From Escherichia phage vB_EcoS-CHD5UKE2, in the sequence record NC_073059.1: a DNA stretch of 45,243 nt; one strand, written 5' to 3'. The translations under genes were made by a program, and so were the position numbers. The notes below the pieces were generated by a model. That model was not told the DNA's origin. It did not search any database and saw only the letters and a program-made list of their open reading frames with translations. Within the stretch, counting starts at the first letter, position 1. Each line of letters begins with the position of its first letter. Below, one piece after another: positions 10,675-45,019 of this stretch.

Positions 10675-10684
10675 GGTCGTTTCC

Positions 10685-14300: not shown

Positions 14301-14320
14301 AGCCCGGAATTAACCGGGCT
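14301..14320 (-). terminator. Rho-independent terminator at the end of the lysis cassette
   Basis: Hairpin agcccgg-aattaa-ccgggct followed by a T-tract on the minus strand. Confidence 0.5.
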
Positions 14321-14327
14321 TGATTGT

Positions 14328-14495: not shown

Positions 14496-14511
14496 ATCGT
14501 GTCACCTCGTA

Positions 14512-15522: not shown

Positions 15523-15574
15523 AAAAAAGTCCCAGTAAGTTTTAGCTCACTGGGACTATATCACGCTTGCATAA

Positions 15575-15862: not shown

Positions 15863-15960
15863 AATTTGCACCATAAGTATTTAATCAGGCCGATAATCCC
15901 AGCCAACAAGACCAGGGCCGCAAGACTGCCGCTGCACATTATCGCGAGGATGTATAGCAT
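15859..15960 (-). CDS. 33-aa hydrophobic peptide, not in ORF track
   Basis: ATG 15960 with RBS GAGGGGG 7 nt upstream; MLYILAIMCSGSLAALVLLAGIIGLIKYLWCKL. Confidence 0.35.
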   Translation of the reverse strand: MLYILAIMCSGSLAALVLLAGIIGLIKYLWCKL

Positions 15961-16081
15961 TGTATTGCCCCCTCTGGTTGTCCAATATGGCGCGCCCAAG
16001 CACGCGCCACGAAGTAATTGCAGAACACTCGCCCGCCTATCTCAAAGCGGTTATGCATGAGCATATCACGGATAGTCGCGC

Positions 16082-16696: not shown

Positions 16697-16845
16697 GGGA
16701 AAATCTCCTCAATCTCATCGACCGTCTTATTGTCGCCATCGCAAACAGTAGCGATGCCGTCCATCTCGTAGTCCAGGATGCAAGATAACAGGTCTACGAA
16801 TTGCTGCGAATATCCTGCCATTAGCGTTATTTGCATTGGCGTCAT
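16693..16845 (-). CDS. 50-aa acidic protein, not in ORF track
   Basis: ATG 16845 with RBS GGAG; ATGA overlaps at both ends; MTPMQITLMAGYSQQFVDLLSCILDYEMDGIATVCDGDNKTVDEIEEIFP. Confidence 0.45.
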   Translation of the reverse strand: MTPMQITLMAGYSQQFVDLLSCILDYEMDGIATVCDGDNKTVDEIEEIFP

Positions 16846-17111
16846 TTGCTCAGTCTCCAGTGTTTGCCTACCCGCTCAACGGCGGGCTTCCGGCGTAATG
16901 TAATACGGATTCCCATTGGTTGCAAGGAAGTCCGCACATAGAAATCATGTTGTGCTGCGAACTGGTGCAAGTAGCGAGTCTGCGTAAGTGGCTTCACGTC
17001 GTCGCGATAGCACCAGTACACGGAATCGCCCTCAATCGCATTCTTAGCCCATATTCGTACGCAATGCAGGGGAATATGCCAAGAAAGCTGTTTAGCTCGC
17101 CTACGGCTCAT
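16842..17111 (-). CDS. Hypothetical protein
   Basis: 89 aa ORF in the coupled chain. Confidence 0.45.
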   Translation of the reverse strand: MSRRRAKQLSWHIPLHCVRIWAKNAIEGDSVYWCYRDDVKPLTQTRYLHQFAAQHDFYVRTSLQPMGIRITLRRKPAVERVGKHWRLSK

Positions 17112-17120
17112 TTTGACCCC

Positions 17121-17447
17121 TTATTTCGCAAGCTGGGCGAATAGTTCGCGCTGGGCTTTAATCCGGGCGACGTTTGTCACTGCCTTACCGCCAATACCGA
17201 AGCGATACGCCAGGCGCTCACGGGCAAATGCAAGCGCGTAGTCCTGGATAGCGTTCGCCAACGGCTGGATCTCCGCCATCGTGTCGAAGCGGCGCTCAAG
17301 CATCCAGGCGATGGCCTGCTGCGCGAAGCGAACAACGGACCACGCTGCCGCTAGTCTTTCGACCGCTTCCGCCCCTTCACCGGCGAACTCCGCCGCTTCT
17401 TGTGCCGCCGCCATTGCCAGTGAGTAATTCCAGATTAATGCTCTCAT
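17121..17447 (-). CDS. Hypothetical protein (first gene of the minus-strand late block)
   Basis: 108 aa; RBS AGAGGA before ATG 17447; promoter-like TTGCAT-N17-TAGATT with GCAACCAAT motifs upstream. Confidence 0.5.
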   Translation of the reverse strand: MRALIWNYSLAMAAAQEAAEFAGEGAEAVERLAAAWSVVRFAQQAIAWMLERRFDTMAEIQPLANAIQDYALAFARERLAYRFGIGGKAVTNVARIKAQRELFAQLAK

Positions 17448-17640
17448 TGTTCAATCCTCTTGTTGGTGTGCAACCAATCTAGCAGGGTGCCAGGCTGAAT
17501 GCAACCAATATTAATCACGCGTATGAAAAAGCTGATCGCTATCTGCTGCAACTGCAAACTGCATTTTTCACTTCACATAACACAACTCGCATTGGTTGCC
17601 TAGTTCATCAACAACCGCGATTCACATCATGCTGCCGTAC

Positions 17641-17850
17641 ATTATGCAATCCCGGATTTTATGCAGTCTCAGACGAGGGGGGCCAACTGACCCCCGTCTA
17701 GTCTGAAAGACTGGGGTTTGTCCCGCCTGTCCCGCTCCCTCGCAAGCCGCGTAATCCGGGGCGGGACAGGGGTGCTGTCCCGCTTTGTCCCGCCCCCTGT
17801 CTGTCCCGCTTTTTGTCCCGCTTACTTTATGCAATAAAACTGCATAACTA
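17641..17850. repeat. Iteron-bearing structured element, copy B, between primase-helicase gene and the start of the late operon
   Basis: Same conserved blocks and hairpins as copy A, divergent central spacer; followed by AT-rich tttatgcaataaaactgcataactattcactatatttacac. Confidence 0.8.
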
Positions 17851-17927
17851 TTCACTATATTTACACTACACGGCAACCAATGCGACCAGCTAAAAACACT
17901 CAATTTGGCAACCAATGCGCGCAAAAT

Positions 17928-20189
17928 TTAATCTTTCAGGTCGTCATCGGTCGCTGAAAGCGTGATTGGGATATCCGATTTGATGACCAGATTCGACGAC
18001 CCATAGATGGCCCCGGTGTGTGGATCTGTATAAAAACCGAGCACGCCGCGCTCCACCATATCGTCGATTGCCTTCGTCGATGTGCCACCTTTCGCGAGTC
18101 CAGCCTGGCGGACAATTGCCGATTTACTGAATCCAGTATGGTCCGGGTTATCTTCCATCAGTTTCTCCAGTGCCGCATAAAGCACCTTCTCTTTTTCGTT
18201 GCGCGGTCCGGCGGTGTTCTCTTCCTTAACTGCTGCCTTGCCTGCGGCCTTCGCCTGTTCAATAGCGAACGGTGCCAGGGCGACCGGTACGAGGTAAAGA
18301 GTCTCGTCGCGTGGCGTGGATGCAATTGGCTTGACGTCCCAACCGGCAACCACATCGCCGAAGTCCGGACCGGTGCTGGTGGACTGGTGGGCTTCGAACG
18401 CCTCGGACTTACGGAGATCCACCTTCACCTTGCACTTGAGCAGGACGAAGCCACGCGGCGCTTGCTTAATCCCGTTACGGGATTTTTCGTGATACAGGTT
18501 GAGTTGGCCTGGCTGGTTGTCATCCGGCTGTTCCAGGAAGAACGCAGAATCAACAGCACCATGAAGCGCGCCGGACCCGCGTGGCGATCTGCTGCCGTTT
18601 GCGCCCTTAGCCGGGTGATGGATGACGCCCGCACTGCCACCTGTATTTTCCGCAATGGCCTTCAGCGCCTTGACCACTTCGCCCATATCGCTGGCGTTGT
18701 TCTCGTCGAACGGTTTGGCATCAGCGGACCGCAGCGCTACAGTCTGGTTGAGTGAGTCGAAGGCCACCAGGCCAACCGGCTCCCCGTTAGCGGTGCGGTT
18801 GATAAAGCTGATAACTTCGCGCAAGCCTGACTTGCTGGTAATATCCCAGCCGCGTGATTGCAGATCGACAATGTGCAGCTTGTCGAGGTCGTGCTCGTAT
18901 TTAATCTGCAATGCTTCCTTACGCTGGTTGGAGGCTTCGCCACCTTCCGCATCGAAATAGAAGTTATGGCACTGGACGACCTTCGCGCCACCAAACGGAA
19001 TACCGGCAGATACGGACGCCATCTGGCCCAGCACGTAGAACGACTTACCAATGTTCGACTCACCGGCAAGATACCAGGTCGATTTGAAGTTGACCAGGCC
19101 TTCGATGATCGGGTCGTGCTTACTGAATAGTGCAACAGGTTCGTTGTCCAGGTCAGCGTCGGTGCATTCGCCGTACTCGTCGCCGTCGCCGACCGCATCA
19201 ACAATATGTTCATAGCATGATTCCACTTCCTCGTCGTCCAGTCCCGGAAGGATGGCGGCGATTTGCTTGCGTGACATGTTGTGCGGTTCAACGTTCAAGT
19301 GGTCCGGGATACCGATCAGACGTAACGCCAGGTGCTGGTGTTTGTTCAGTTCGGAACAGCACTCGTTGCCGGTGTGCATACACTTGAAACGGATCTCGCC
19401 ATCCTTAACCATGATAGCCGTCGACCCGCCGCCGCTATGCAGGTGCTCGTTCGGGCACGGCACTTCATAACCGCGACCGGATGACAGTGGTTCAAAGCCA
19501 GCCTGGAAGCACCAGTCCAGAATCCCGTCCGCCACGCCATCGTCGCCCTGGGTCAGTTCGCGGCGTACTTCCTCTTTCTCCACTCCCAGCTTGTCAGCCA
19601 GGCGAAGCAGGCGACGGACACGGGCGCGCTTGCCAGGATGACACGACACGGTAGATCCGGAATGGGGGAGGAATTGCAGGTTGTTAACGTTTTTTGTGCA
19701 ATCATCAAACGGCACGTCTTCCAGCCCCAGGTGTTTCAATAGCGCGAACTGCGCACGGCCTAAATCGGAAACATCAACCGGTTTATCAGTGAGCACCAGG
19801 AAACGGGCGCAACGTGTGCCGCCCTTCAGCGGGTGGCGGTCGCCTGTAGTGGAGTAGTAGACGTGGGATAAGCCGGATTTGCGAAAGGCACGCTTAACGC
19901 GACCGAGGGTACGGTTGTCAGTGCGGTCCAGGTCATAGAACAGTACGGAACGGACACCTACTTCCGTAGCACGACGGCCTCGGCCTTTAGTGGTGGCGAC
20001 AATGCCTTCGGCCTTGCCTTTCACCTCGTCGTATTCTTTCTTAGTCTCGTCGCCGGTAATGGTTACGCTGGATAGCTCAACGGTATCCACGACGTATTCC
20101 ATAAACTCGGCTTCAGTCATAGAATGGTTTTTAACACGCTTGCCGTACTTACCACCAACGGTGCCGAACTCAATTAAATAGTTTTTCAT
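17928..20189 (-). CDS. DNA primase / replicative helicase (RecA-like ATPase domain)
   Basis: 753 aa; Walker A GESNIGKS in the C-terminal half; Cys/His cluster CPNEHLH...C in the N-terminal half. Confidence 0.6.
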   Translation of the reverse strand: MKNYLIEFGTVGGKYGKRVKNHSMTEAEFMEYVVDTVELSSVTITGDETKKEYDEVKGKAEGIVATTKGRGRRATEVGVRSVLFYDLDRTDNRTLGRVKRAFRKSGLSHVYYSTTGDRHPLKGGTRCARFLVLTDKPVDVSDLGRAQFALLKHLGLEDVPFDDCTKNVNNLQFLPHSGSTVSCHPGKRARVRRLLRLADKLGVEKEEVRRELTQGDDGVADGILDWCFQAGFEPLSSGRGYEVPCPNEHLHSGGGSTAIMVKDGEIRFKCMHTGNECCSELNKHQHLALRLIGIPDHLNVEPHNMSRKQIAAILPGLDDEEVESCYEHIVDAVGDGDEYGECTDADLDNEPVALFSKHDPIIEGLVNFKSTWYLAGESNIGKSFYVLGQMASVSAGIPFGGAKVVQCHNFYFDAEGGEASNQRKEALQIKYEHDLDKLHIVDLQSRGWDITSKSGLREVISFINRTANGEPVGLVAFDSLNQTVALRSADAKPFDENNASDMGEVVKALKAIAENTGGSAGVIHHPAKGANGSRSPRGSGALHGAVDSAFFLEQPDDNQPGQLNLYHEKSRNGIKQAPRGFVLLKCKVKVDLRKSEAFEAHQSTSTGPDFGDVVAGWDVKPIASTPRDETLYLVPVALAPFAIEQAKAAGKAAVKEENTAGPRNEKEKVLYAALEKLMEDNPDHTGFSKSAIVRQAGLAKGGTSTKAIDDMVERGVLGFYTDPHTGAIYGSSNLVIKSDIPITLSATDDDLKD

Positions 20190-32668: not shown

Positions 32669-33244
32669 ATGTACGGCGAATACGAAATAACCGGTAAACA
32701 ATTCCACATAGCGGCAATGTTGGCGAGCGTCGAGTTTGACCAGTGGCGATTAAAGTCTGACGCGTGCAAGCAAAGCCGACTTGTCGGTGTGCTGGGCGAG
32801 ATGTTTGCTGGCATGTACCTTGAAGGGCAGGCAGGCGGGCGTAGTTGTATCCCGCAAGGCTTGCTTATGCGTACCGGCCTGTTTAGCGCCAATACTATCG
32901 ACCGCGGCGATATTATCATGGTCGGTAAACGCAAGGTTAAGTCCGGCCCCGACTTCCGTGAGCACATGATTGATGCTGTCTGGACCTACGAGGTCAAAGC
33001 CACCAGCGGCATCCGTCGCGGACTGGTAGAGGCGCGTTGCGCTCGCGAGTATCTCACCCGTCGGGTTGCCGGTGTTATCCTGGTGGGCGTATCGTTCGGG
33101 CAACATAGCGCACACGGCGTGATTGAGGATATTGCGGAACCATACGTGATTGTCAACGACTGGCCTCTGGTGGAAGTGGAGGGCAAGGAATATTACGAAA
33201 GCCCGTTAGTACGGCGCAAAATGGACTGGGAAAACTCAAACTAA
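32669..33244 (+). CDS. Hypothetical protein, possible PD-(D/E)xK-type nuclease
   Basis: 191 aa; weak D...EVK-like motif (DAVWTYEVKAT); RBS GAGGG. Confidence 0.35.
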   Translation: MYGEYEITGKQFHIAAMLASVEFDQWRLKSDACKQSRLVGVLGEMFAGMYLEGQAGGRSCIPQGLLMRTGLFSANTIDRGDIIMVGKRKVKSGPDFREHMIDAVWTYEVKATSGIRRGLVEARCAREYLTRRVAGVILVGVSFGQHSAHGVIEDIAEPYVIVNDWPLVEVEGKEYYESPLVRRKMDWENSN

Positions 33245-33248
33245 AAAA

Positions 33249-33264
33249 GGGGCCGTATGGCCCC
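33249..33264. terminator. Bidirectional terminator between the convergent early block and the tail-fibre gene
   Basis: ggggcc-gtat-ggcccc flanked by an A-run and a T-rich run. Confidence 0.55.
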
Positions 33265-33270
33265 TTCTCA

Positions 33271-34860
33271 TTACTTACCTTCCAGCTTTTCTACTTTCTG
33301 CAACAGGTGAACGAAGGCGGCGCATAGATCCATCAACAGCACGTTACTGTCAAGCGACAGTACATCGTCGGTGTATCCGATCTCCTTTTGCTCGACAATC
33401 TCGTTCCCTTCCTCGTCCACGCCAACAACAACGTCCTCGTAGATTCCGTGTCCTGGCAGCAAGTGCACATATTCCGGGTCAATCATGGCCAGGTCCTGCG
33501 CGATAAGGCCGTAACGCTGTACGTCCGACTCCTTATACTTAAACATAGCCGGTAGCCATTGCCGTACTCGGTTGTAACTTTCCGCGCCGTCCGTGTATTT
33601 GATTTCTTTCTTCACGTCCCGGTCTGATAGCGGTGCTTTCTGGAACTCCGCCGACGATGGGTTGCCGCTGTTACCCTGAATCAGACGCCCGTCCGGCAGG
33701 AAGCGGAATAGCGCCTCAGTTACCCCACTCTTCCACGCGTGGATCCGGTAGTCTGACATGTGGGTGTCACCCGCACGCACAATTCCTGCGCGTGTCCAGT
33801 CGGCGTACCATTTATGCATGGTGAAGCCTACCCAACTGTCGATTCCCATCGAGGCGTTTGATAGAATTAAGCCGTTAGCCTCCACTTCATTGAATGTTAA
33901 TGATTTGCCACCGTTCAGGCGTAATGTTGCGTGTTTAACGTTACTGTCATCGCCCACCCCCAGAATGTTGCGCGCGGTGTACTTGTCGGCAACGTCCGCC
34001 AGGTTCTGCGACTTCTGCATGAACTTAGTGGGGTCGATTGAGTTTTTGAAGCCTTCGGCTTCGTCGCGGTATCCCTGCGCTGCATCTCGGGCCGCTTGTG
34101 CGTCAGTCTTCGCCGTGTTGGCCTGATCTCGAATAACGCCAGTGTCAGTCTTAATCTGGTTGGTCTGGTCCTTGATGGCCTGCGTATCGGTCTTAATCTG
34201 GTCGGTTTGCGTCTTGATCGTATTGGTGGCGTCGTGGATAGCCTGCGTATCAGTCTTAATCTGGTTGGTTTGCGTCTTGATGGTATTGGTGGCGTCGTGG
34301 ATAGCCTGCGTATCAGTCTTAATCTGGTTGGTTTGCGTCTTGATGGTATTAGTATCGTTCTTGAAGCCTTCGGCCTCGTCGCGGTATCCTTTCGCTGCGA
34401 CCTCAGATGCGGCGGCTTGTTGTTGCAGGTTGAGCATTTCCACCGGGTCGATCTGCTTCATTAGCTGCGACAGGTAGCCCCACGACATACCCTGCATCAC
34501 TGTGCCGTTCGGTAACGTAACTGTGATTTCTTCAGCGTCGCCGAAGATTGCACGCCAGTTGTTCTCGTCCGCAATAAGCATACGCAGTGCTTTCTGTGCC
34601 TGGACTGTTACGCCCATCGTTGCCAGCGACATGGTATCGCGCGCAACGCCATCCCATGCGAGGCCGGATGCCGTTGGGCCGTCAAACGGCAGCACCAAAG
34701 TAAGCCCGGTGTTGCTTTCGATAGATTCAATCGCGATAGTGTAGGGGACTTGCCCCACTACGACAGAAAGGAAATCACCGGCTTTGAACGCCGAAAACGT
34801 CGTACCGGTCCCCGTTACCGACCGGCTGTTATTGGTTAATAAGATAGTACCCGCTGCCAT
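33271..34860 (-). CDS. Tail fibre protein with C-terminal intramolecular-chaperone (peptidase S74-like) domain
   Basis: 529 aa; RBS AGAGGA; three 21-aa shaft repeats (TQTNQIKTDTQAIHDATNTIK); C-terminal region (KKEIKYTD...GLIAQDL...LEGK) resembles the autoproteolytic chaperone of endosialidase/T5-type fibres. Confidence 0.55.
   Translation of the reverse strand: MAAGTILLTNNSRSVTGTGTTFSAFKAGDFLSVVVGQVPYTIAIESIESNTGLTLVLPFDGPTASGLAWDGVARDTMSLATMGVTVQAQKALRMLIADENNWRAIFGDAEEITVTLPNGTVMQGMSWGYLSQLMKQIDPVEMLNLQQQAAASEVAAKGYRDEAEGFKNDTNTIKTQTNQIKTDTQAIHDATNTIKTQTNQIKTDTQAIHDATNTIKTQTDQIKTDTQAIKDQTNQIKTDTGVIRDQANTAKTDAQAARDAAQGYRDEAEGFKNSIDPTKFMQKSQNLADVADKYTARNILGVGDDSNVKHATLRLNGGKSLTFNEVEANGLILSNASMGIDSWVGFTMHKWYADWTRAGIVRAGDTHMSDYRIHAWKSGVTEALFRFLPDGRLIQGNSGNPSSAEFQKAPLSDRDVKKEIKYTDGAESYNRVRQWLPAMFKYKESDVQRYGLIAQDLAMIDPEYVHLLPGHGIYEDVVVGVDEEGNEIVEQKEIGYTDDVLSLDSNVLLMDLCAAFVHLLQKVEKLEGK
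34155..34356. repeat. In-frame tandem DNA repeats (63-bp unit, about 3 copies) inside the tail-fibre gene
   Basis: 34198..34260 and 34261..34323 are near-identical 63-mers; partial copies flank them. Confidence 0.8.
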
Positions 34861-34941
34861 AGCTGAATCCTCTTAAAATTGGTTGCATTCTTGATTGAGC
34901 GGTGCAATACTAAAACTCAACCAAATATAGGAGATGATAAC

Positions 34942-35163
34942 ATGAAAACTTTAATTATGATTTGTGCGGTCCTTTTGTCCGGTTGTGCTGTAGAACGCAA
35001 CAACGGCGATTGCATTACGGTTGCTTACGGTAGCTGCATGTTACGCTACGTTGACGGGCAAAAAGTCCCTGCCGGGGACGTGGACATGCGCTTCACGGGC
35101 CTATCTGCCGATAGCGACGGCAATTTCTCAGGCACTGTATCTGTTAAATCACGGGAGTGGTAA
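34942..35163 (+). CDS. Small lipoprotein, candidate superinfection-exclusion factor (Llp/Cor-like by context)
   Basis: ATG 34942 with RBS AGGAG; signal peptide plus lipobox LLSGC; 73 aa; placed beside receptor-binding tail genes on the opposite strand. Confidence 0.5.
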   Translation: MKTLIMICAVLLSGCAVERNNGDCITVAYGSCMLRYVDGQKVPAGDVDMRFTGLSADSDGNFSGTVSVKSREW

Positions 35164-35165
35164 TA

Positions 35166-36131
35166 ATGGGCGCTGGAATACTCATCGACTACAACGACGG
35201 ACGACCGATTATGGAGATAACTGCCGGTTTGCGCGCTCCGTCATACTGCACTACGTTTGATCAGCGCTGCCAGTCCGACAAGACGCTGACCATTAATACC
35301 CCGCTAACACCAGGGTCGGACCTTGTCGTTGCACTCACGCGCCCGGTAGAAGTGCTTGAGGTGTTCGACCAGACGCTGGTTCTCCCCGACCCGTTCTACG
35401 TGACGTCGGTACAGCGCAACGGGGATAGTGGAATTATCCTTCGAGGCGCGGACGCGCATAACGCATACAGCGGCCTCCCGCAATGGGCTGGTATAATTAT
35501 GGAAGTGCTGCCGGTGGGGTCACGCAATGCGGGCTTACTGGTGGCGAACTCGACAGACTTCACCGCGATTTCCAACGTGTCCCGGTTAATGACCTGCCGC
35601 TACGCGCAGCGCGTGCACGTGAACGGTAGTATGCCTTTGCCTGTGGGCGGTATCCCGTTCGCGCGCTGGGATAATGGCAACGTATCGGTAGGCTTCGATG
35701 GTAGTAGTATCATCGTCCGCAATTCGTCTTATGGCGGGATTGATGACGTCGGGGCCGAAGTGGACTTGGATCTGGTTATCTTCAACAATACGCCTCCATC
35801 ACCGGGGACTGGTATCACCATGACGAACAACCAGGGGCAGGTCACGTTCTCGACCGTTAACAAGCCGTTTGTGCTCAATTCGGTAATTAATATCGGCACC
35901 GGCGGTCAGAATATCGGTAATAGCCTCGTACAGCTTTCATATACCGGCGCGCTCATTGAGAACAACAGCGGCTACAACCACGTTCGAATGAACGGGATAC
36001 GCATGGCGGGCAACGTGGTTAGTGCGGCGCGTAATCGCGTAATCGGTAACTACTCACGGCAGCAATTCCAGATGCCTAACCGCAACATAGCTGTCCCAAC
36101 CCCGTTACTCGTCATACCTAACATGTATTAA
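35166..36131 (+). CDS. Hypothetical beta-rich protein co-transcribed with the lipoprotein
   Basis: ATG 35166 with RBS GGGAGTGG (ORF-track start 35157 is GTG); 321 aa, Gly/Asn/Ser/Thr-rich, no TM segment. Confidence 0.5.
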   Translation: MGAGILIDYNDGRPIMEITAGLRAPSYCTTFDQRCQSDKTLTINTPLTPGSDLVVALTRPVEVLEVFDQTLVLPDPFYVTSVQRNGDSGIILRGADAHNAYSGLPQWAGIIMEVLPVGSRNAGLLVANSTDFTAISNVSRLMTCRYAQRVHVNGSMPLPVGGIPFARWDNGNVSVGFDGSSIIVRNSSYGGIDDVGAEVDLDLVIFNNTPPSPGTGITMTNNQGQVTFSTVNKPFVLNSVINIGTGGQNIGNSLVQLSYTGALIENNSGYNHVRMNGIRMAGNVVSAARNRVIGNYSRQQFQMPNRNIAVPTPLLVIPNMY

Positions 36132-36158: not shown

Positions 36159-39100
36159 TTACCACGTCCCGACTTTAACCCTTCCCCCTCCAGGTAAGGG
36201 CACGTTGACGCCCGTTGCGTCGATCGTAACGGACCCGCCGGAGAATCCGAAATTACCCGTAGTCGCGAACAAGTTGCCGCGTACCGTTACGTTGTTGAAC
36301 TCCGCCCCGCCATCCTTCGCGATTCGCCAGCCGCTGTTACCCGGATTCCAGTTATTGGATTGCAGCGTGTCCGTGATCTGTGCGAAGTTGATGGACGCAT
36401 TCTTGATGCGCGCCGTGTCAATGTACACCTGACCGCCGTCGACGATAAACGCGGACGAAAGCGACCCATTCGACGGGTGCATGATGTAGAACTGGTCCGC
36501 CTTGAACGCGATGCGAGATTTAACCGCGCCACCTTCCGCCACAACGGAAAGCTGCATACCGGCATCATAGTAAGTCCCGTTATACGTCACGCCAGCTTTA
36601 AGGCTGTAGGTGGCGCTACCGCCAGCATGGTTAAACGAAGACGTCATCTTCTGCTCGATCGCTGCGGACTGCTGACCGAACTGTGCCGCTACCTGGGTCT
36701 TATACTCAGCCAGCGCGCCCGCTACGTCTGCCGTTGCCGTTTGTACCTGCTGGATGGCAGCTTCCTGTTCCCCGAACTTAGCGGCAACAGTTTGTTGATA
36801 CTGGGCGAACGCTTGTTCGTGCGTGCTTTGCGCAGTCTGCAACGTGTGGATTGACGCTTCCGCATCGTCAAGGCGCGTGCCGATCAGCGTTTCCAGTTGC
36901 GCTACGGCCTCGTTTGCGTCCACCGCAACGTTGTACGCCACCTTGATTTCCGCATAAATCCCTTGATACTCGGAGCGGGCGTTAAACAACTGCTGCGCGT
37001 CGGTGAGCATGGCCTCGTAAATGCCTTGTGGAATGGTGTCGATTGCTTCCTGGAAGTGTTTACCGTCCTCGGAAGTCAAGAACTCGTCATCAAGCCCCTG
37101 CATGTACTCGTCAACTTTGTCACTCACCTGACCGTCAAACGGGTCTGACCAGTCCGACAGGTTGCCGATTTTATCCGCTACGCGTGCGCGCAACTGCTGG
37201 TAGATCCCGAATTCCAGCGACGTTTGCGCATAGTCCGACCCCGGATATGGGACGTTGGTCAAGAATTTCCATTCAGTCTCACCCAGCTTGCGCACTTCAA
37301 GCTCGGTATACGAAATATCCGTCGCGGCGTTGTTGTGATTCCACTTCCACAAAATTTGATGAAGGCCCGAAATCGCGTTGGTAATGATTGGCGCGTTTAG
37401 CCCGCCAAGACGGCCCTCGACCGGCGTGATTTCGGATGACACCCACGGGGATGAAATCTCGCCCATACCGATAGCGCGGACGCGTGCCTGGTAGTTACCA
37501 GAAAACACGTTCGGGATGTGCGCGCCGTTCGACGCCGTGCGGGGGATGTTAACCCAGTCGTTGCCCCACTGTACTTCCAGATTCTGCAAGCTGGTACGTC
37601 GCCACTGGATTTCGTACACAACGGCATCCTTCACCGGCGGAAAAACAATATCTACGTTGGTGATTAGCTGGCCTTGCGATGAAATCTGCGACGGGGTGAT
37701 AGTAACGGATTCTGGCCCCTTCATCACGCCGTCCGGCACTTGAGTGAAGATACCCGGATCAAGACGCGCGCCATTATCAACGGCATCATATTTGCTATCG
37801 TTGTACTCAATCCCGCGCACCGAAAAAGTGCTGGTAGCGTCGTCATATTCCAGGTCTGTGATGCGGAACTTCTGCAACTGGATATCATCGCCATCAACGC
37901 AAAACGGCTGATCGGGAATCGGGTCGGAGTCCAGTGCGGTTTTTAGCGTGACCTGGTTGCCGTTGACGCTGGCAATCTCGCGAGTCTCCACATTACCGCT
38001 CTCGGTGCGCACCAGGAATTTATCACCAGGGCGGAACGTGATTTCGCTGTCCGTGTTCAGCACGGTGCGCGTGCCTGGATCTGACAACAGGCGTCCGCCG
38101 CGTGTCTCGAAGCCGCCAGAAATGTTAGTATCTGCGATCGCGACTACGCTCCCCGGAATAAAGAATAACCCCTCCATGCCAACCTTAAAGCTGACTTGCT
38201 GGTCAAGCTGGTTGGAGATTAGCGCCCAGTGCCCGCGGCGTTGCGCTTCAGATTCTCGCGTACAGCCGATCGCCGTGATATCAAGGCGGTTAATCTTATG
38301 GCGGCGCACCAGTTCGACACGTTGACCCGTTGCGATGGCGTCATCATAGTGGTTCTTCGGGTTGCCGTAGGCTACCGAGAACGTGGAATACCGAGTTTTC
38401 TGGCTTCCCGATGCGTAGTCGAATCGACCATCAATGACCGAGGCGTTGGTGATAGTATGCGATACCGCTGCGACAGGCTGGTCACTGACGATATTCAACA
38501 TCTGGTTGCCCCACCAGGTCATGCCCGCAAAGATAGCCGCTAAATCCTTCAGCACGGTCCAGGCGTCGGTCTGCGACTGAATGTACATATCATTCTTAAA
38601 TCGGATTTCCTGACCGCCGTTGCCGTCACTGACCATCTGATCGCAGCGCTGCGAAATCTGGTAGAGTGCGTAACGGTTTAGCATTTGTGGCTTGACACGA
38701 CGACCGAGGCCGAAGCGCTCAGTAATACAAATATCGTACCAGTGCCACGCAGGGTTATCCGTCCAGGCGCGTTTAAATGTGCCGTCCCAGTCACCAGAAT
38801 AGGTATGATTAATCGGGTCGTAGTTGTTCGGCACCAGCACTTTGCGGCCTTTGCACTTGATGGACACACGCGGGATGTTCTGGAACGCCTTAGCATCGAA
38901 CTCCACGAACAACAGCGCGGTTAGCGGGTATCGCAGGCGGGCGTCGATAATCTCAGTAATGGATTGTACCTGAATATCGTTGACCACTTTTGCCGATGTG
39001 GAGTCTGCCGTTGTGCGGTGCACCTCCACGCGCCAGCCGGTATTCACGTTCGGCGGTAATTCGATGCGGTGATCGCGCTCATACAGCGACATTGTTTTAC

Positions 39101-39605
39101 CAACGGCAGCGAATGTAAACTCCCGCGGATCAGCATTGTCTGTATACACAACAATTTTATAGTCGATGCGCCCGCCCACCAGGTTGCCATTATCTTCGTT
39201 GGTGTACAGGGCCGGAATACCGATTCGAATGCGCACCGCATCCAGACTGGTATCCGAAATCTGGCGGACCCACGGCTGGCCCTGTTCCAGTTTTACGCCT
39301 ACTGTTTGCTCGCTTTCCACCGCTGAAAAACCGTGAATCACATCCTGGTGCTGCGTGCCGGGGCGGAACTCCACACGCGCGCCGGGGAAGTTATCCGACA
39401 GGTCGGCGTTCTGGATCGGTGTGCCGTCCAGGTATACACGCTGCCGTAATTCGTTAGGGTCGGGAATGCCTTCAAATTCGCCCTCGCCCAGTGCGAGCAA
39501 GATGCGGATTTTAGCCAGCGAATGCAGGCTATCAGGCGTCTCCTGTGGGGTGTGCTGTTTGCCACCGCCGCCTTTATGACCCGTGACGTCGTATACAATC
39601 GTCAT
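36159..39605 (-). CDS. Central tail fibre / host-specificity protein (lambda gpJ-like)
   Basis: 1148 aa; last gene of the lambda-like M-L-K-I-J order; ATGA coupling to the I-like gene. Confidence 0.7.
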   Translation of the reverse strand: MTIVYDVTGHKGGGGKQHTPQETPDSLHSLAKIRILLALGEGEFEGIPDPNELRQRVYLDGTPIQNADLSDNFPGARVEFRPGTQHQDVIHGFSAVESEQTVGVKLEQGQPWVRQISDTSLDAVRIRIGIPALYTNEDNGNLVGGRIDYKIVVYTDNADPREFTFAAVGKTMSLYERDHRIELPPNVNTGWRVEVHRTTADSTSAKVVNDIQVQSITEIIDARLRYPLTALLFVEFDAKAFQNIPRVSIKCKGRKVLVPNNYDPINHTYSGDWDGTFKRAWTDNPAWHWYDICITERFGLGRRVKPQMLNRYALYQISQRCDQMVSDGNGGQEIRFKNDMYIQSQTDAWTVLKDLAAIFAGMTWWGNQMLNIVSDQPVAAVSHTITNASVIDGRFDYASGSQKTRYSTFSVAYGNPKNHYDDAIATGQRVELVRRHKINRLDITAIGCTRESEAQRRGHWALISNQLDQQVSFKVGMEGLFFIPGSVVAIADTNISGGFETRGGRLLSDPGTRTVLNTDSEITFRPGDKFLVRTESGNVETREIASVNGNQVTLKTALDSDPIPDQPFCVDGDDIQLQKFRITDLEYDDATSTFSVRGIEYNDSKYDAVDNGARLDPGIFTQVPDGVMKGPESVTITPSQISSQGQLITNVDIVFPPVKDAVVYEIQWRRTSLQNLEVQWGNDWVNIPRTASNGAHIPNVFSGNYQARVRAIGMGEISSPWVSSEITPVEGRLGGLNAPIITNAISGLHQILWKWNHNNAATDISYTELEVRKLGETEWKFLTNVPYPGSDYAQTSLEFGIYQQLRARVADKIGNLSDWSDPFDGQVSDKVDEYMQGLDDEFLTSEDGKHFQEAIDTIPQGIYEAMLTDAQQLFNARSEYQGIYAEIKVAYNVAVDANEAVAQLETLIGTRLDDAEASIHTLQTAQSTHEQAFAQYQQTVAAKFGEQEAAIQQVQTATADVAGALAEYKTQVAAQFGQQSAAIEQKMTSSFNHAGGSATYSLKAGVTYNGTYYDAGMQLSVVAEGGAVKSRIAFKADQFYIMHPSNGSLSSAFIVDGGQVYIDTARIKNASINFAQITDTLQSNNWNPGNSGWRIAKDGGAEFNNVTVRGNLFATTGNFGFSGGSVTIDATGVNVPLPGGGRVKVGTW

Positions 39606-40952: not shown

Positions 40953-41741
40953 CTACCCCTTAATTAATCTGGACCCCGGAAAGCCGCCATAGTCCAGCAC
41001 CGCCGCTTTCGGATCTGCAAGCCCTTGTCCGAAACGAAGATAACAGTCGGACAAACAGCCGCCACATCGGTCCATATCCATCGCGATGACTTCATTGCCT
41101 CGCTCGTCATAATACTTGATGCCAGGCTGTGCAAGGTTCCAGGTGCACCCGTCCCCGCTGGCATACTTCCCGTTGAGCGCCCATTCGCACATATTCATGA
41201 TTTGGCGGCGCGGGACTACTTGCCCCTCCATATCCGCGGGCGAGGATAATGCGAAGGTGATTTGTTTGCCCGGATTGCGACCGACCTGTGAGTCGATGTA
41301 AAACTCCTGTACACGTTTTTGCGTTGGGTCTGGGTCAGGCCCGTTGTCCAGGAACTTCGCAAACGTGTCTATGATTTCAACCTTCGCGCCCAGTAGCTGG
41401 TCGTGATTCAGGGATAGCCTGGTGATAATCCCGCCAATATCGACGATAGTTAGCTGCGGTTCTGCTGCCGTTGATGTGGAGAAGTTGAGGCCAGACAAAT
41501 CGAAGGGCCAGAATTCGAACTCCTGCCCGCCGAAGAAGATAGATTTTGGCTTTAGCTTGTCCTCGTCGCCGCCAGCGGCAGCAATATCGTCGGCAGTGTG
41601 CGGAATAAAGCAGTAATGGAAATAATGGTGGCCCGCGCCGATCGCGCCGTCGCCCGGCTCCACGTCCTGCGCATCAATGTGAATCAGGCGAACGCGGCCC
41701 GATGGGTCAAAGCGCGTCGCCTCACGATATAGTTTATTCAT
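40953..41741 (-). CDS. Minor tail protein (lambda gpL-like)
   Basis: 262 aa; C-terminal Cys cluster (CEWALNG...CTWN...CGGCLSDC). Confidence 0.6.
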   Translation of the reverse strand: MNKLYREATRFDPSGRVRLIHIDAQDVEPGDGAIGAGHHYFHYCFIPHTADDIAAAGGDEDKLKPKSIFFGGQEFEFWPFDLSGLNFSTSTAAEPQLTIVDIGGIITRLSLNHDQLLGAKVEIIDTFAKFLDNGPDPDPTQKRVQEFYIDSQVGRNPGKQITFALSSPADMEGQVVPRRQIMNMCEWALNGKYASGDGCTWNLAQPGIKYYDERGNEVIAMDMDRCGGCLSDCYLRFGQGLADPKAAVLDYGGFPGSRLIKG

Positions 41742-42337
41742 CTTACGAATCCAATAGCAGTCTTAAGGGTGGCGGATACCGTTGCCGTGTAGTGTCCGTT
41801 GTCAGTGTACGACAAGCTCGAACGCTCGACCACGAATAAACCTGTTTCACCATCAGGCGCGGTGACTACAAACGGCTTGACGAAATGCCCGCGAAGGAAG
41901 TTGTACACCAGTTTAGGGTCACACCACTTGTCAGTAGTCAGTCCGATGAATTGCACGGGGAACTGTTTCGTCTCGGCGTTCGGGCCATCCGCGATGTTCT
42001 GCCCGTAGCCATTGCCGAATTGCAATTCCTCCGACCGGAAAGCCAACTGCACGTCGCCGCCACCTTGCAATTGCATGTGCCAGTAATAGGGCCATTCGTT
42101 TGATCGCGGGTCGTGCGCTTCGATTAGCTCGTAGGCTGCACCGGCTTTTGTCGGACCGGCCCAGTTATCCACCAGGGTGATGACTGTATCAGAGTTGAAT
42201 GCTGCAATTTTGCCGGTGTAGTCGTTGCCGTCGATGCGGGCAAATACGCGGACCTTCCCGATCTCGCTCAGGAACGCCGTCCCCGCGCCCGTGACGGTCT
42301 TACTTCCGTTCGTTAGTGTGATTGTACCTTGTGCCAT
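41738..42337 (-). CDS. Minor tail protein at the gpM position; N-terminus homologous to the tail-fibre N-terminus
   Basis: 199 aa; RBS TGGGGG; first ~25 aa MAQGTITLTNGSKTVTGAGTAF parallel fibre MAAGTILLTNNSRSVTGTGTTF. Confidence 0.5.
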   Translation of the reverse strand: MAQGTITLTNGSKTVTGAGTAFLSEIGKVRVFARIDGNDYTGKIAAFNSDTVITLVDNWAGPTKAGAAYELIEAHDPRSNEWPYYWHMQLQGGGDVQLAFRSEELQFGNGYGQNIADGPNAETKQFPVQFIGLTTDKWCDPKLVYNFLRGHFVKPFVVTAPDGETGLFVVERSSLSYTDNGHYTATVSATLKTAIGFVR

Positions 42338-42373
42338 GAAAAAGCCCCCACGTTGTATGTGAGGGCCATTTTA

Positions 42374-45019
42374 TCATCGTTTGTAAAGTACTCCACCCGG
42401 TTTCGTCGCTTTCACGATCTCGGCCTTGACCGACTCGGTGATTTGCTTTCCGAACGCCTGCGCGGTGCGTGGGTCCGGTCCGCTCACACTGGTGTCCGTC
42501 TTACCGGTACCCATGTTCACGTTGGTTGTTACAATCATCCCACCCCCACCAGCACCGGCAGCGGCAACGCCCAGTTTCCCATCCGGCCCGCGCTTCAGTG
42601 GCATGATAGCCTCGGGTCCAGCCTCACCCATCAACCCAGCGCCCTTAGCGAACGCCTGAACGCCATAACTGAAAAAGGTGGGCTGGCTTACCACTTGACC
42701 AGAATAGGCCGCGAGATTGCCTCCTGCGTACGCTCCGCCGTCTGCGTTCTTAGTGAGGCCCGAGAAGATAGCGCCGAACAATCCGTTTTTGCCGCCGTCA
42801 CCGCCGAAAGCGCTAACGATGGATTTGAACGCCTGCGAGGTAGCCAGCTTGATTAATTCGCTCAGGATGGACTTAACCATATCCTTTGCGTTCAGCTTGC
42901 CCGTCTCGAAAAACGTATTCATCGTGTCCTGCATAGCGCCGAACGTGAATTTTGTGAGTGACGTCATCTGCGTGTAGCCGTTCCCCATTTCATCCACGCT
43001 ATCCTTAAGCCCGCGGCTAAAGCCATCCCACAACGAAGCGTTAGCACCGGTCTGTGCTTCCTGCACTTCGCGCAGCTTAGACACCGCCCGGTCAATATCA
43101 GTATCGTTAGCGCCGACACGCTGAAGGCGGTCAATTAGCTGTAATTCTTCGCGCAGGTTAGCCGCTTCGCGAGTGGAAAGCGCATAGCCCGCAGCGGTGG
43201 CCCGTAGCTCGGCGTTCTGGTTCTTGATGAATGCCTCGACCTGGGCGTGTGCCTTGATCTGCTTCTCTTTCGCGTCCAGCAATTTGGCTTCTTCGACGAT
43301 CTGCTCGCGTACCGCTTTAACCGCCTCGAACTCTGCCATTTGCTGCTTTTCTGCTGCCGTTAGTGTGCGTTCCTTGCTTGCTGCGACCATTTGCTCATTA
43401 TCCGCGACCAGCTTATTCAACGCGGCCTGTGCGCGCTGCGTGCGGGTCTGCGTTGTGGCATTGGCTTCGATCTGCTTGCCGGACTCCTTAAGCTGTGCCA
43501 GTTCGCTCCGCGCGACCTCCAGCATTTTAACACCGGCATCGACGCGAATTGCCGCCGCCTTTTTCGGTGCGGGGTCTTTGTAGCGCTCGTTGACCTGCTT
43601 CACCGCCTCGGCTAGTTCTTTCTCGTTAATCACACCGCGCTTATTCAGTAAATTGAGGCGGGCGATCTCGTCGGCGCGCTTCTTCGCGTTGGTGGCAAAT
43701 TCCTTCTCGAACGCGGCGCGGTCACGGGCGGTGCGGTTGGCCTCCTCGTTCGCCTTCGCTGATTTGTCCGCAGCGCTGGCGTTGTCGCGCTCGGCACGGT
43801 TACGCAGGGTGAGCGACGCTACTACTTTTTCCTGTGCGACCAGTTCGCTATAAAGCATGTTAATACGTGCTTTCTGCGCGTCGGTCATTACCCCACCGGC
43901 AGCGTTTACCGCTTTCATCTCAGCATAGTAAGCCGTGGTCATGCGCTGCAATGACTCACGCGCTTTCATCTCGGACTCATTCGATGACTGCGCGCGGCCC
44001 ACATCCAGGATGGCATCCCACATAGATTTAGCTGCCGATGTGACGACGTTCATCGACCGCTCAAGCGTACCCATGTTGGACTTGATCTCGTTGGTCATGC
44101 TGGTGAACGACGCCGCGGCTGTTTTGTTCGCCAGCGCCACCGCTTCGGTTTCGCGACCCGTCGTAACCAGTGACTGCACCTGCTGGATCTGCGCCTCGGT
44201 AACGACGTGATACTTGTCCGCCAGTGCGCGCAAGCCGCCCACCGGGTCGTTGGACAATTTGGAGATGGACTCCACCACGTCGGCGATCGGCTGATTAGAC
44301 ACCTTCGCGAAGTCGTTCACTACTTTCGCCAGCGCGCCGAAGTCAGCACCCGCTTTCACACCTGCCGCCGCCAGCGCCTGAATTGTGTCACGCGTCTTGC
44401 TGAATGAACCGCCCATTCGTTCGGCGTTCTCCGACAGCACCAGGATCTGGTTAGCGGTGAGGCCCGAGATGTTACCGGATAGCGCCAGCGTCTTGTTCAG
44501 CGCCGCTACCTGGTTTTCTGCGCGGGACGTAATAGCCACGCCTACGCCTAGCGTTGCCGTTACCGCAGCAAGGCCGATCCCTACCGGACCGAGAAAGCCA
44601 GCAACATAACGCAGCGTGTTACCCAGTCCACCGAATGCCCCGGTTAACTGCGGTAGCTGCTGAATCATGACGCGGTGCACCGGCATACCCATCTCGAGCG
44701 TGACCGCGATATCTTGTAACTGAAATGCGGCGTTACGCGATGCGAAGCCCAGGTTTTTGGTCGACATGCCTAAGCGGTTGGCAAGTCGCTCCTGCTTCGT
44801 CATGCCATCGGCGGCCCGCTGCGATTCAGTTGCCAGCTTCCCCATTCCGCCCGCGGCGTCACTCGTCACCTTTTTTGAGTTGCCGAGGGTGTCGTTTAAT
44901 TTCTTGACCTTGTTTTCGGTGTTTTCGGACTTCTGCGCGAATGAGTCCAGCACCGTATTCGCCGTTCTGATTTGTGCAACATCCGCCTTTAGCGTGATGC
45001 CTGCTGCTTGATCTGCCAT
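42374..45019 (-). CDS. Tail tape measure protein
   Basis: 881 aa, alpha-helical/coiled-coil-rich; Gly-rich hydrophobic C-terminal region; RBS GGGGA before ATG 45019. Confidence 0.7.
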   Translation of the reverse strand: MADQAAGITLKADVAQIRTANTVLDSFAQKSENTENKVKKLNDTLGNSKKVTSDAAGGMGKLATESQRAADGMTKQERLANRLGMSTKNLGFASRNAAFQLQDIAVTLEMGMPVHRVMIQQLPQLTGAFGGLGNTLRYVAGFLGPVGIGLAAVTATLGVGVAITSRAENQVAALNKTLALSGNISGLTANQILVLSENAERMGGSFSKTRDTIQALAAAGVKAGADFGALAKVVNDFAKVSNQPIADVVESISKLSNDPVGGLRALADKYHVVTEAQIQQVQSLVTTGRETEAVALANKTAAASFTSMTNEIKSNMGTLERSMNVVTSAAKSMWDAILDVGRAQSSNESEMKARESLQRMTTAYYAEMKAVNAAGGVMTDAQKARINMLYSELVAQEKVVASLTLRNRAERDNASAADKSAKANEEANRTARDRAAFEKEFATNAKKRADEIARLNLLNKRGVINEKELAEAVKQVNERYKDPAPKKAAAIRVDAGVKMLEVARSELAQLKESGKQIEANATTQTRTQRAQAALNKLVADNEQMVAASKERTLTAAEKQQMAEFEAVKAVREQIVEEAKLLDAKEKQIKAHAQVEAFIKNQNAELRATAAGYALSTREAANLREELQLIDRLQRVGANDTDIDRAVSKLREVQEAQTGANASLWDGFSRGLKDSVDEMGNGYTQMTSLTKFTFGAMQDTMNTFFETGKLNAKDMVKSILSELIKLATSQAFKSIVSAFGGDGGKNGLFGAIFSGLTKNADGGAYAGGNLAAYSGQVVSQPTFFSYGVQAFAKGAGLMGEAGPEAIMPLKRGPDGKLGVAAAGAGGGGMIVTTNVNMGTGKTDTSVSGPDPRTAQAFGKQITESVKAEIVKATKPGGVLYKR

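Follow-up and report, generated by a model that had tools for sequence, protein, structure and literature searches.

Results

Fibre gene and its surroundings

The window analysed here is a stretch of 45,243 nucleotides (NC_073059.1), and the gene under study occupies positions 33271..34860 of it, on the minus strand, as do all the other features described below. The open reading frame list gives it an ATG start and a product of 529 amino acids. A ribosome-binding site, AAGAGGA, stands ahead of this ATG at 34868-34874, and directly after the stop codon the sequence can be read as an intrinsic-terminator-like hairpin (GGGGCC-ATAC-GGCCCC followed by a T-run, 33243..33264), at a site whose equivalent in the related phage WF5505 carries an annotated terminator. 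The product matches exactly the database entry YP_010740781.1 of Escherichia phage vB_EcoS-CHD5UKE2, a Dhillonvirus, hits PHROG 1980 ‘tail fiber protein’ (E 5e-119) and has homologues in related phages that bear the names tail fibre or lateral tail fibre. The sequence-only reading, made without database searches, was thus right to call it a tail fibre: it is an ordinary lateral (side) tail fibre of a known Escherichia coli phage.

The module architecture of the Dhillonvirus fibre has already been published in the BASEL-2 study, as an anchor, a coiled coil, a T5-like tip and an intramolecular chaperone (PMC11990801). Module by module, the window gene would encode a trimeric fibre of this kind, composed of anchor, stem, rod, hinge, tip and chaperone. 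Other lateral fibres of the genus (RuthEpting/Bas85 Gp29, GeorgBuechner, WF5505 and 101114BS4) are 81-100% identical to it over the first 140 residues and share its genome position as well as the order of anchor, coiled coil, tip and S74 chaperone. The window allele differs from them in one extra 21-residue unit and has the longest shaft seen; its tip also differs from that of most members of the genus, the same tip module being shared by about 30 of 120 homologues.

N-terminal anchor and stem

The first 72 residues (34645..34860) form a small, predicted beta-rich anchor domain. Its profile matches residues 6-74 of the ‘F2-pyocin side fiber’ (PDB 25ve_A; E 1.1e-8), in which the counterpart domain has been called OB-like, and also residues 1-78 of the distal tail protein 23gd_B. 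In tblastn searches, anchor matches fell on the N-termini of fibres, namely N15 gp25, the fibre of the ES18-like phage Oslo and a Rhizobium phage fibre, and other matching records (HK225, Cronobacter) bear a tail fibre annotation. The anchor is therefore homologous to those of side fibres of lambda/T1-like siphophages and F-pyocins, and it lies at the extreme N-terminus. A full HMMER scan found the domain in 3329 protein clusters, and most of the best 150 of these bear it at residues 1-74; it is a very common domain, yet it has no Pfam model.

The stem or neck that follows (aa 73-142; 34435..34644) is predicted to be mostly helical. It is better conserved than the anchor, with 81-96% identity among Dhillonviruses as against 75-81% for residues 1-72, and the stem region aligns with the N-terminal region of Klebsiella siphophage depolymerases (7vyv/7lzj, residues 16-182; E 9e-12), a match that also supports the homology of the anchor. 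AF2 models were obtained for residues 1-150 (pLDDT 55.7) and 268-529 (pLDDT 42.0) from shallow alignments of 16 and 18 sequences, and only the secondary-structure pattern of the first, low-confidence model was used: six beta strands within residues 4-71, and helices at 86-106 and 127-149. A Foldseek search of the PDB with this N-terminal model gave no match at E <= 0.001. There being no reliable three-dimensional model, the fold assignments given here rest on sequence homology.

A predicted rod that varies by whole heptads

Residues 143-273 (34042..34434) are predicted to form a trimeric alpha-helical coiled-coil rod. Seventeen uninterrupted heptads run from residue 155 and contain the 63-bp units; the hydrophobicity of the shaft has a period of 3.5 residues (z = 17.3, reached by none of 2000 shuffles), its core positions are T/A and I/Y/F, and it holds no proline, so that an apolar heptad periodicity runs unbroken and without helix breakers. 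The shaft gave weak matches to SMC/Rad50 coiled coils and to the rod of T7 gp17 (7boz 156-266; E 0.003), and a triple-helix bundle has been described at the N-terminus of the homologous depolymerase DpK2 (PMC8552709). The T7 gp17 fibre is similarly built, in that its N-terminal attachment domain is followed by a heptad rod and that its proximal rod has the G(F/Y)R(N/D)EAEGFKN-type motif; on the other hand, the homology is weak (E 0.003-0.025), anchor and tip are different, and T7 has no S74 domain.

Within the rod lie three in-frame 63-bp units of 21 residues, or three heptads, each (34162..34350), which encode TNTIKTQTNQIKTDTQAIHDA. Unit 1 (34288-34350) and unit 2 (34225-34287) are identical at 63/63 nucleotides and unit 3 (34162-34224) has diverged at nine positions; the earlier description of perfect 63-bp tandem repeats therefore fits two copies only, while that of in-frame 21-residue units applies throughout. 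TRF reported 2.8 copies of a period of 63 at 34174..34350, with 96% matches and a score of 326. At an offset of 63 the sequence matches itself perfectly over at most 68 nucleotides, and the perfectly periodic tract measures 131 nucleotides. The number of perfect 63-nucleotide tandem duplications expected by chance in 45 kb is about 5e-34, and the duplication is not a chance event.

Comparison with related isolates supports the suggestion that these repeats are a substrate for length variation. In three close relatives exactly one 63-bp unit is missing, and once a unit is removed the window gene differs from that of WF5505 at 16 of 1527 positions. Anchor-to-anchor distances across the shaft of homologues were 32, 74, 95, 102, 109, 116 and 137 residues, the value of 116 being modal (n=32) and that of 137 confined to the window. 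Shafts differ by whole heptads, with 15 heptads between the bracketing repeats in the window and 12 in most relatives. Even the window's own clade (P0001-P0004 and P0006, 99-100% identical over the first 140 residues) has four different shaft lengths, and shaft length is thus variable rather than invariant. The bracketing direct repeats are identical to one another at 38 of 42 nucleotides and lie upstream at aa 155-168 (AAKGYRDEAEGFKN; 34357..34398) and downstream at aa 260-273 (AAQGYRDEAEGFKN; 34042..34083). Phage mckay (P0028) has a single copy of this repeat and no heptad tract, and has evidently lost everything between the two flanking copies.

An improbable alternative is that the third unit is an assembly artefact or arose during laboratory propagation and is not a natural allele. 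The 529-residue protein was indeed found on a single contig, the remaining six proteins in its 90% cluster (6/6) having 508 residues, and a perfectly periodic tract of 131 nucleotides is hard to size from short reads. However, the reading frame and the heptad register are kept, and many further lengths that keep the register and contain diverged units are present in independent assemblies; errors of collapse or expansion cannot yield these.

Proposed hinge, tip and chaperone

Beyond the rod, residues 274-304 (IDPTKFMQKSQNLADVADKYTARNILGVGD; 33949..34041) carry a hinge or collar motif, which would serve as a hinge. It matches a motif that is present five times in the ‘short tail fiber gp92’ (PDB 9zd7), as well as one in the DT57C fibre, and in phages bov22_1 and SM_S22 it is doubled by a 30-residue insertion. 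The next segment, residues 305-411 (33628..33948), is presumed to be a small distal receptor (O-antigen) binding domain, given its position and the ‘T5-like fiber tips’ that the BASEL-2 study assigns to a Dhillonvirus fibre (PMC11990801). Tip and chaperone move as one module, which is 82-84% identical in mEp021-type fibres.

The last 118 residues (aa 412-529; 33274..33627), at the extreme C-terminus, match Peptidase_S74 (PF13884). Residues 412-465 cover profile positions 1-57 (E 8.8e-7; 29.6 bits, cutoff 22), with S412 at position 1, and precomputed PF13884 matches were present on nearly all fibre homologues. In the stretch S412-D-R-D-V-K417, an alignment of 18 homologues shows no variation at S412, D413, R414, D415 and K417. 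A catalytic Ser at the cleavage site and a Lys five residues downstream make up the dyad of endoNF and T5 pb1, and S412 and K417 have this Ser-x4-Lys spacing. The chaperone profile also matches the C-terminus of the DT57C L-shaped fibre (8hqz_d 961-1067; E 1.9e-6). All this supports the reading of the C-terminus as a Peptidase_S74 intramolecular chaperone, a chaperone-type end having been suspected from the sequence before. Such a chaperone would be expected to aid trimer folding and then to be released by its own cleavage at S412 (codon 33625-33627), K417 being the partner residue; the lysate proteomics of EE09 reports coverage at the overall level only. The chaperones of the T5/DT57C L-shaped fibre and of the K1F endosialidase are likewise C-terminal, carry the Ser-x4-Lys pair and pass the Pfam cutoff. 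In comparison with the L-shaped fibre, the window fibre is much shorter and its tip domain smaller; attachment to the virion is different as well, T5 using a collar protein.

A distal tail protein with an anchor-like extension

The 199-residue protein encoded at 41738..42337, which had been assigned to the gpM position, is a gpM-like distal tail protein (DTP). Its gene comes directly after that for the tape measure, in the order tape measure, DTP, L, K, I and J, and its residues 86-187 match Phage_min_tail (PF05939; 44.1 bits, cutoff 39). In the PDB the protein matches 23gd_B, ‘Distal tail protein gp20’, with 96% identity (E 1e-130), as well as the T1 distal tail protein 9l9p_H (E 4e-12). A literature search found no paper behind PDB 23gd; a text match to ‘distal tail protein gp20’ in Aeromonas phage Avs-1 was set aside, that phage being unrelated and its tail tip different.

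Residues 1-72 of the DTP (42122..42337) are a paralogue of the fibre anchor that comes without a stem. BLASTP aligned the N-termini of the two proteins without gaps (28/70 identical, or 40%; E 4e-9), their PHROG matches cross reciprocally, and a phmmer search of the PDB with the fibre retrieved residues 1-72 of the solved orthologue of the DTP (E 7.6e-6). The sequence-only reading had called the two N-termini homologous and proposed a formal alignment as the check; by these alignments the similarity is significant and reflects true homology.

This extension has a narrow distribution. The closest relatives of the DTP core (55-65% identical) have 122-125 residues and no N-terminal extension, and searches with the N-terminal domain, by tblastn against phage genomes and by a full HMMER scan, found the fusion in Dhillonvirus only; among the best 150 of the 3329 anchor-domain clusters it was the one DTP fusion. 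Within the genus, identity is 89-96% for the N-terminal domain and 97-100% for the core. A Rhizobium phage ‘minor tail protein M’, considered as a second fusion, turned out to be a fibre-like protein of 367 residues encoded downstream of the tail genes. A short form of the DTP starting at the internal M88 was dropped because no ribosome-binding site precedes that codon.

Discussion

The explanation that we consider probable takes the locus module by module, as a lateral fibre together with an old DTP fusion that acts as a decoration of the tail-tip ring. An anchor-type domain without its stem would have been fused long ago to the N-terminus of a gpM-like DTP in the Dhillonvirus lineage, and would now most likely be a peripheral decoration of the hexameric ring, like the extra domain of T5 pb9 or of other ‘evolved’ DTPs. 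These proteins (T5 pb9 with its decorating OB domain, and the lactococcal and monocin DTPs with galectin-like domains) likewise consist of a core of the tail-tube fold and one peripheral domain per subunit, and the F2-pyocin paper describes the anchor-type domain as similar in structure to the domain that decorates the distal tail protein of T5. Unlike in the ‘evolved’ DTPs, however, the window DTP carries its extra domain at the N-terminus, and by sequence this domain is a paralogue of the anchor on the phage's own fibre.

The fibre itself would be attached to the tail tip by its beta-domain anchor (aa 1-72) and helical stem (aa 73-142) together, and we infer that it docks on the shaft of J, in the segment at 36636..37088. 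In F-pyocins, the homologous fibre domain and the stem helix that follows it attach to the central fibre at its coiled coil (PMC13455828, PMC12874032; also 10.64898/2026.02.24.707460), the stem making the main contact with the shaft. Window J matches PDB 23gd_D and also the F2-pyocin central fibre (E 1.7e-224), and its shaft segment can be aligned to those of F2 and T1. No counterpart of the F2/F7-pyocin attachment site (kink 953-956; acidic 950-961) is assigned on window J, because the window shaft is shorter and the alignment starts beyond that site. In the solved Dhillonvirus tail tip (entry 23gd), a phmmer search of the PDB did not find the fibre among the chains. The F-pyocin side fibres (PyoF13 / PA0643 / PA0646; PDB 25ve) resemble the window fibre in having a homologous anchor and a central-fibre partner homologous to gpJ, and differ from it in an R-pyocin-like tip, separate chaperone genes and the lack of S74. 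Unlike the window DTP, the F-pyocin DTP (113 residues; 25vf_6) has no anchor-like extension.

It had also been suggested that the fibre and the DTP might share a docking site. This is unlikely in view of the F-pyocin precedent, and the DTP copy has no stem and is tethered far off. Moreover, L008, a Dhillonvirus-like relative, has a short DTP without the N-terminal domain and yet keeps the same fibre anchor and stem; its J shaft is shorter by about 65 residues, so that its tail tip does not cleanly isolate the role of the DTP domain. N15 and ES18-like phages combine the same fibre anchor with short DTPs and the J shaft segment. [quoted passage not shown]

Alternatively, the domain may itself bind a cell-surface glycan or some other component as a weak adhesin, acting like the decoration domains of other DTPs and independently of the fibre, a possibility that we regard as real but rather doubtful. 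The domain family is also represented in very large proteins that hold 4-13 copies in tandem together with PKD, SdrD_B or Peptidase_C25 domains, an organization typical of surface or adhesive proteins; the greater variability of the N-terminal domain than of the core across Dhillonviruses would fit such a role, as would the likeness to the decorating domain of the T5 protein drawn in the F2 paper. Yet in fibres the only role demonstrated for this domain is protein-protein attachment.

It is unlikely that the DTP domain is instead a docking platform, with the six anchor-like domains of the DTP hexamer arranged as a collar, to which the side fibres would be recruited by paralogous domains contacting like with like. 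In such an arrangement, Dhillonvirus fibres would hang on the DTP and not on the shaft of the central fibre. The homology of the two domains speaks for this, and the side fibres of Ur-lambda, T5 and monocin do attach at or around the DTP. However, L008 retains the fibre anchor and stem without the DTP domain, the same anchor is paired with short DTPs in N15, ES18-like phages and F-pyocins, and the DTP copy lacks the stem that makes the main shaft contact in the latter. In addition, the two domains appear to assort independently among Dhillonviruses: CHD2B1 has a DTP N-terminal domain identical to that of the window and a fibre that is 83% identical over its first 140 residues, while WF5505 has an identical fibre anchor and a DTP domain that is 94% identical. 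This assortment is a qualitative observation, drawn from 15 IMG/VR loci of low diversity.

A more speculative proposal, to which we give little credence, is that Dhillonviruses copied the side-fibre anchor onto the DTP so that six tethered copies mimic the ring of fibre anchors seen in F-pyocins, either recruiting a second set of fibres at the junction of tube and tip or competing with, and so regulating, the docking of the fibre. If true, side fibres would here be connected to a siphophage tail in a new way. More generally, the single known anchor-DTP fusion could help to explain the wiring of side fibres in lambda/T1-like tails, a question that has become testable because structures of the Dhillonvirus (PDB 23gd) and F-pyocin tail tips now exist.

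Finally, the earlier suggestion that the two genes have exchanged a module, taken as a recent exchange or gene conversion between their 5' ends in this genome, is very improbable and contradicted by the comparisons: both proteins begin almost alike, MA(A/Q)GTI.LTN.S..VTG.GT.F, but they are 35-40% identical over the domain, the DTP copy is about equally distant (34-38% identity) from the anchors of its own fibre and of the fibres of L008, N15, ES18-like and Rhizobium phages, and across Dhillonvirus conservation is seen for each copy on its own. With the divergent mEp021-type anchor, the DTP domain shares 22% identity. As judged from these comparisons, the DTP copy goes back to an old fusion, one found in no group other than Dhillonvirus.

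None of this overturns the current understanding, and the practical value is modest. The fibre does provide a clear case of a rod that varies by whole heptads inside one phage genus, so that simple gain or loss of repeats may adjust how far the fibre extends through the O-antigen layer. Changes in length would come about by unequal recombination or slippage between near-identical units of 7 and 21 residues, and recombination between the two bracketing GYRDEAEGFKN repeats could delete the whole rod. The present isolate would carry a very recent, perfect 63-bp duplication, and by the standard rise per residue of a coiled coil the extra unit would lengthen its rod by about 3 nm. For the engineering of fibre length or for tip swaps, the bracketing repeats and the heptad units offer natural junctions that preserve the register.

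Setting and architecture of the fibre

Phage vB_EcoS-CHD5UKE2 is a Dhillonvirus, an HK578-like E. coli siphophage, and its whole 45,243-bp genome makes up the window. The tail genes lie on the minus strand in lambda order: the tape measure gene (42374..45019) is followed by genes for a 199-aa gpM-like protein (41738..42337), for gpL-, gpK- and gpI-like proteins and for a gpJ-like central fibre (36159..39605). The fibre gene (33271..34860, minus strand) is a genuine ORF, preceded by a ribosome-binding site (AAGAGGA) and followed by a terminator hairpin immediately 3' of the stop codon; its 529-aa product is exactly YP_010740781.1, annotated in the record as a hypothetical protein. Over this gene, the nearest other genomes are those of WF5505 and 101114BS4 (98.6-98.7% identity). 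Between the gpJ and fibre genes, two plus-strand genes (34879-36131) code for a protein with DUF6453 and for a small PF24052 lipoprotein that weakly matches a Cor-like PHROG; a 2025 modelling paper proposed that homologues of both are receptor-binding components of the central fibre tip that had gone unrecognised (PMC12309495).

The protein is an ordinary lateral tail fibre that had been catalogued before. Its architecture has been published for Dhillonvirus: in the BASEL-2 study, the fibre Bas85 Gp29 is described as beginning with an anchor at the N-terminus, continuing as an elongated coiled coil to a T5-like tip and ending in an IMC domain (PMC11990801). In the window fibre, a beta-rich domain (residues 1-72; six strands in a low-confidence model) precedes a mostly helical stem (73-142), which is better conserved within the genus (81-96% identity versus 75-81%). 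Then come the shaft (143-273), a hinge motif, NLADVADK..AR.ILGVG (274-304), that is repeated in other phage fibres, a small distal domain (305-411) and an S74 chaperone (412-529). Both structure predictions were of poor quality, and the fold search gave no usable information. In the related phages bov22_1 and SM_S22, a 30-aa insertion after the hinge (columns 301-330 of alignment A1) duplicates an ...AR.NLG.G motif, which makes the hinge motif, too, a repeat unit that a fibre can gain.

Heptad-wise length variation of the shaft

The three observations of the sequence-only reading, namely 63-bp repeats, a chaperone-type C-terminus and an N-terminus shared with the 199-aa protein, were borne out by TRF, Pfam and alignment, respectively. 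The tandem repeats (34174..34350; period 63 bp, 2.8 copies, 96% matches) are in frame and encode TNTIKTQTNQIKTDTQAIHDA. They had been called perfect, which holds for units 1 and 2 (63 of 63 nt identical) but not for unit 3, with 9 differing positions. From residue 155 on, the shaft has 17 unbroken, proline-free heptads whose two core positions are T/A and I/Y/F, and its hydrophobic periodicity of 3.5 residues (z = 17.3) was reached by none of 2000 shuffles. Weak matches to SMC/Rad50 coiled coils and to the T7 gp17 rod, together with the triple-helix bundle of the Klebsiella depolymerase DpK2, at an N-terminus homologous to that of the fibre (PMC8552709), support its being a trimeric alpha-helical rod.

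Copy number does vary among relatives, in keeping with the proposed role of the repeats as a substrate for length change: WF5505, 101114BS4 and ST-T-K have exactly one 63-bp unit fewer. With one unit removed, the window gene shows only 16 mismatches to WF5505 over 1527 nt, and is therefore a WF5505-type allele plus a perfect tandem duplication. In a survey of 120 homologues and the window fibre, 41 sequences had both the DPVEM and IDPTxFM motifs, and the distance between these was 32, 74, 95, 102, 109, 116 (n = 32) or, in the window alone, 137 aa. Every difference is divisible by 7, and the majority are also divisible by 21. Four shaft lengths occur inside the window's own clade (P0001-P0004 and P0006, whose first 140 aa are 99-100% identical). 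The heptad register is kept in every variant, which fits selection for an intact coiled coil. From the standard coiled-coil rise per residue, one 21-residue unit adds ~3 nm of rod. What the present work adds to earlier knowledge of these fibres is documentation that shaft length is polymorphic in heptad steps, the window isolate having the longest and most recent expansion. The extra copy might conceivably stem from assembly or passage, as the 529-aa allele is known from a single contig, while all six cluster mates have 508 aa.

Two copies of a 14-residue sequence, A(K/Q)GYRDEAEGFKN, bracket the heptad tract as direct repeats (residues 155-168 and 260-273; 38 of 42 nt identical). The mckay fibre (P0028, 424 aa), compared with window positions 34042-34398, lacks the whole tract and keeps one GYRDEAEGFKN-type copy, as would be expected of recombination between the bracketing repeats. 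That these repeats can delete the rod is likewise new.

The C-terminal chaperone and tip module

The chaperone-type C-terminus is matched by Pfam Peptidase_S74 above the curated cutoff (residues 412-465), with profile position 1 falling on S412. There, SDRDVK provides a Ser-x4-Lys pair, and 18 homologues all share S412, D413, R414, D415 and K417. A profile of homologues also matches the C-terminal part of DT57C's L-shaped tail fibre (8hqz_d 961-1067; E 1.9e-6). Taken with the BASEL-2 description, these features lead us to expect autocleavage as the predicted behaviour of the chaperone. The distal domain and chaperone together (33274-33948) are 82-84% identical to those of mEp021-type lambdoid fibres (P0070, P0047, P0062 and P0094), behind an anchor of just 25% identity, a combination that shows shuffling of the tip module between temperate lambdoids and virulent Dhillonviruses; tip and chaperone travel as one module.

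An anchor domain shared with the distal tail protein

An ungapped alignment pairs residues 1-70 of the fibre with residues 1-70 of the 199-aa protein at 40% identity (E 4e-9), PHROG cross-hits between the two are reciprocal, and a phmmer search of the PDB with the fibre found the solved orthologue of the 199-aa protein via the N-terminal segment alone (E 7.6e-6). A profile of eight such N-domains matches the side fibre of the F2 pyocin (25ve_A residues 6-74, E 1.1e-8) and, at E 6e-4, depolymerases of Klebsiella siphophages, for which a longer profile gave E 9e-12 over residues 16-182. The domain has no Pfam model; a full HMMER scan placed it in 3329 protein clusters, nearly always as the very N-terminal part of proteins 250-800 aa long. 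Arrays of 4-13 tandem copies of it are present in proteins of 1000-2900 aa (P0131, P0132, P0134, P0142 and P0195), of which the three scanned (P0131, P0132 and P0134) contain PKD, SdrD_B or Peptidase_C25 domains, so that it is a general beta-module and not a phage anchor alone.

With Phage_min_tail at residues 86-187 and 96% identity to 'Distal tail protein gp20' of a solved Dhillonvirus tail tip (PDB 23gd_B; 23gd also holds the window gpJ orthologue), the 199-aa protein is the distal tail protein. Fusion of the N-domain to it was found only in Dhillonvirus. Phage-genome matches below 60% identity lay in fibre genes wherever inspected (N15 gp25, Oslo and a Rhizobium phage), and further records of this kind carry a tail fibre annotation. 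The proteins closest to the core of the distal tail protein (55-65% identity) are 122-125 aa long and lack the N-domain; among the best 150 representatives of the 3329 clusters, Phage_min_tail was found in none of the seven other 160-220-aa proteins scanned. With the anchor of the fibre encoded in the same genome, the N-domain shares only 35-40% identity, and it is about equally distant (34-38%) from the fibre anchors of L008 (a Dhillonvirus-like metagenomic relative), N15, ES18-like phages and the Rhizobium phage. It is an old acquisition, and the module exchange that had been suggested is not supported as a recent event. That the Dhillonvirus distal tail protein bears an old paralogue of a widespread fibre anchor domain has, like the shaft polymorphism, been added here.

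Fibre docking and the role of the second copy

In three independent F-pyocin structures, the anchor domain and following stem helix dock the side-fibre trimer on the coiled-coil shaft of the central fibre (PMC13455828, PMC12874032, 10.64898/2026.02.24.707460). Window gpJ possesses the helical shaft and shows strong homology to the central fibre of F2 (E 1.7e-224); judging from both, the window fibre would dock in the same way. N15 and ES18-like phages combine the same fibre anchor with short distal tail proteins and the J shaft segment. The match of lambda J to the window shaft query starts only beyond the helical segment, and Ur-lambda fibres attach differently, by an Ig-like ring around the distal tail protein (F-pyocin literature).

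A docking site common to the fibre and the distal tail protein had also been proposed; several observations argue instead that docking does not need the distal-tail-protein domain and that the two would have no common site. The distal-tail-protein copy is the beta-domain alone, without the stem. The domains seem to assort independently among Dhillonviruses: CHD2B1 combines an identical distal-tail-protein domain with a fibre that shares 83% identity in the first 140 aa, while WF5505 has an identical fibre anchor and a 94% identical distal-tail-protein domain. L008 (Logan SRR25999232 contig, 10001-18279), with Dhillonvirus-like synteny, has a 123-aa distal tail protein without the N-domain, yet its fibre, which ends in a PF25670 domain in place of the S74 chaperone, keeps anchor and stem. 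It is an imperfect control, its gpJ helical shaft also being ~65 aa shorter, but together with the independent variation in CHD2B1 and WF5505 it makes it unlikely that the distal-tail-protein domain serves as a fibre docking platform.

Most likely, the domain decorates the periphery of the ring that the distal tail protein forms, possibly with a weak adhesive function. Such a role is favoured by the tandem copies in very large PKD-, SdrD- or C25-containing proteins and by the remark in the F2 paper that the anchor domain is similar to the domain that decorates the distal tail protein of T5. Across the Dhillonvirus loci L010-L024, the N-domain (42122-42337) varies more than the core (41741-42088): identities are 89-96% and 97-100%, respectively, apart from one locus with 78% and 88%. 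The fibre anchor, too, is more variable than the stem.

Other sequence features

A terminator-like hairpin (GCCC...GGGGC, then TTTTT; 42338-42376, minus strand) occupies the 36-nt gap between the tape measure stop and the distal tail protein start, its T-run touching the ATG. The equivalent site in WF5505 is annotated as a terminator, and the hairpin may keep the tip genes at a lower expression level than the tape measure gene. Near the left genome end (85-300) lie dense direct and inverted repeats built on GTCCCGC / CGGGAC, among them a 34-nt repeat (176-209 and 266-299, 97% identity), which could be protein-binding sites for packaging or regulation.
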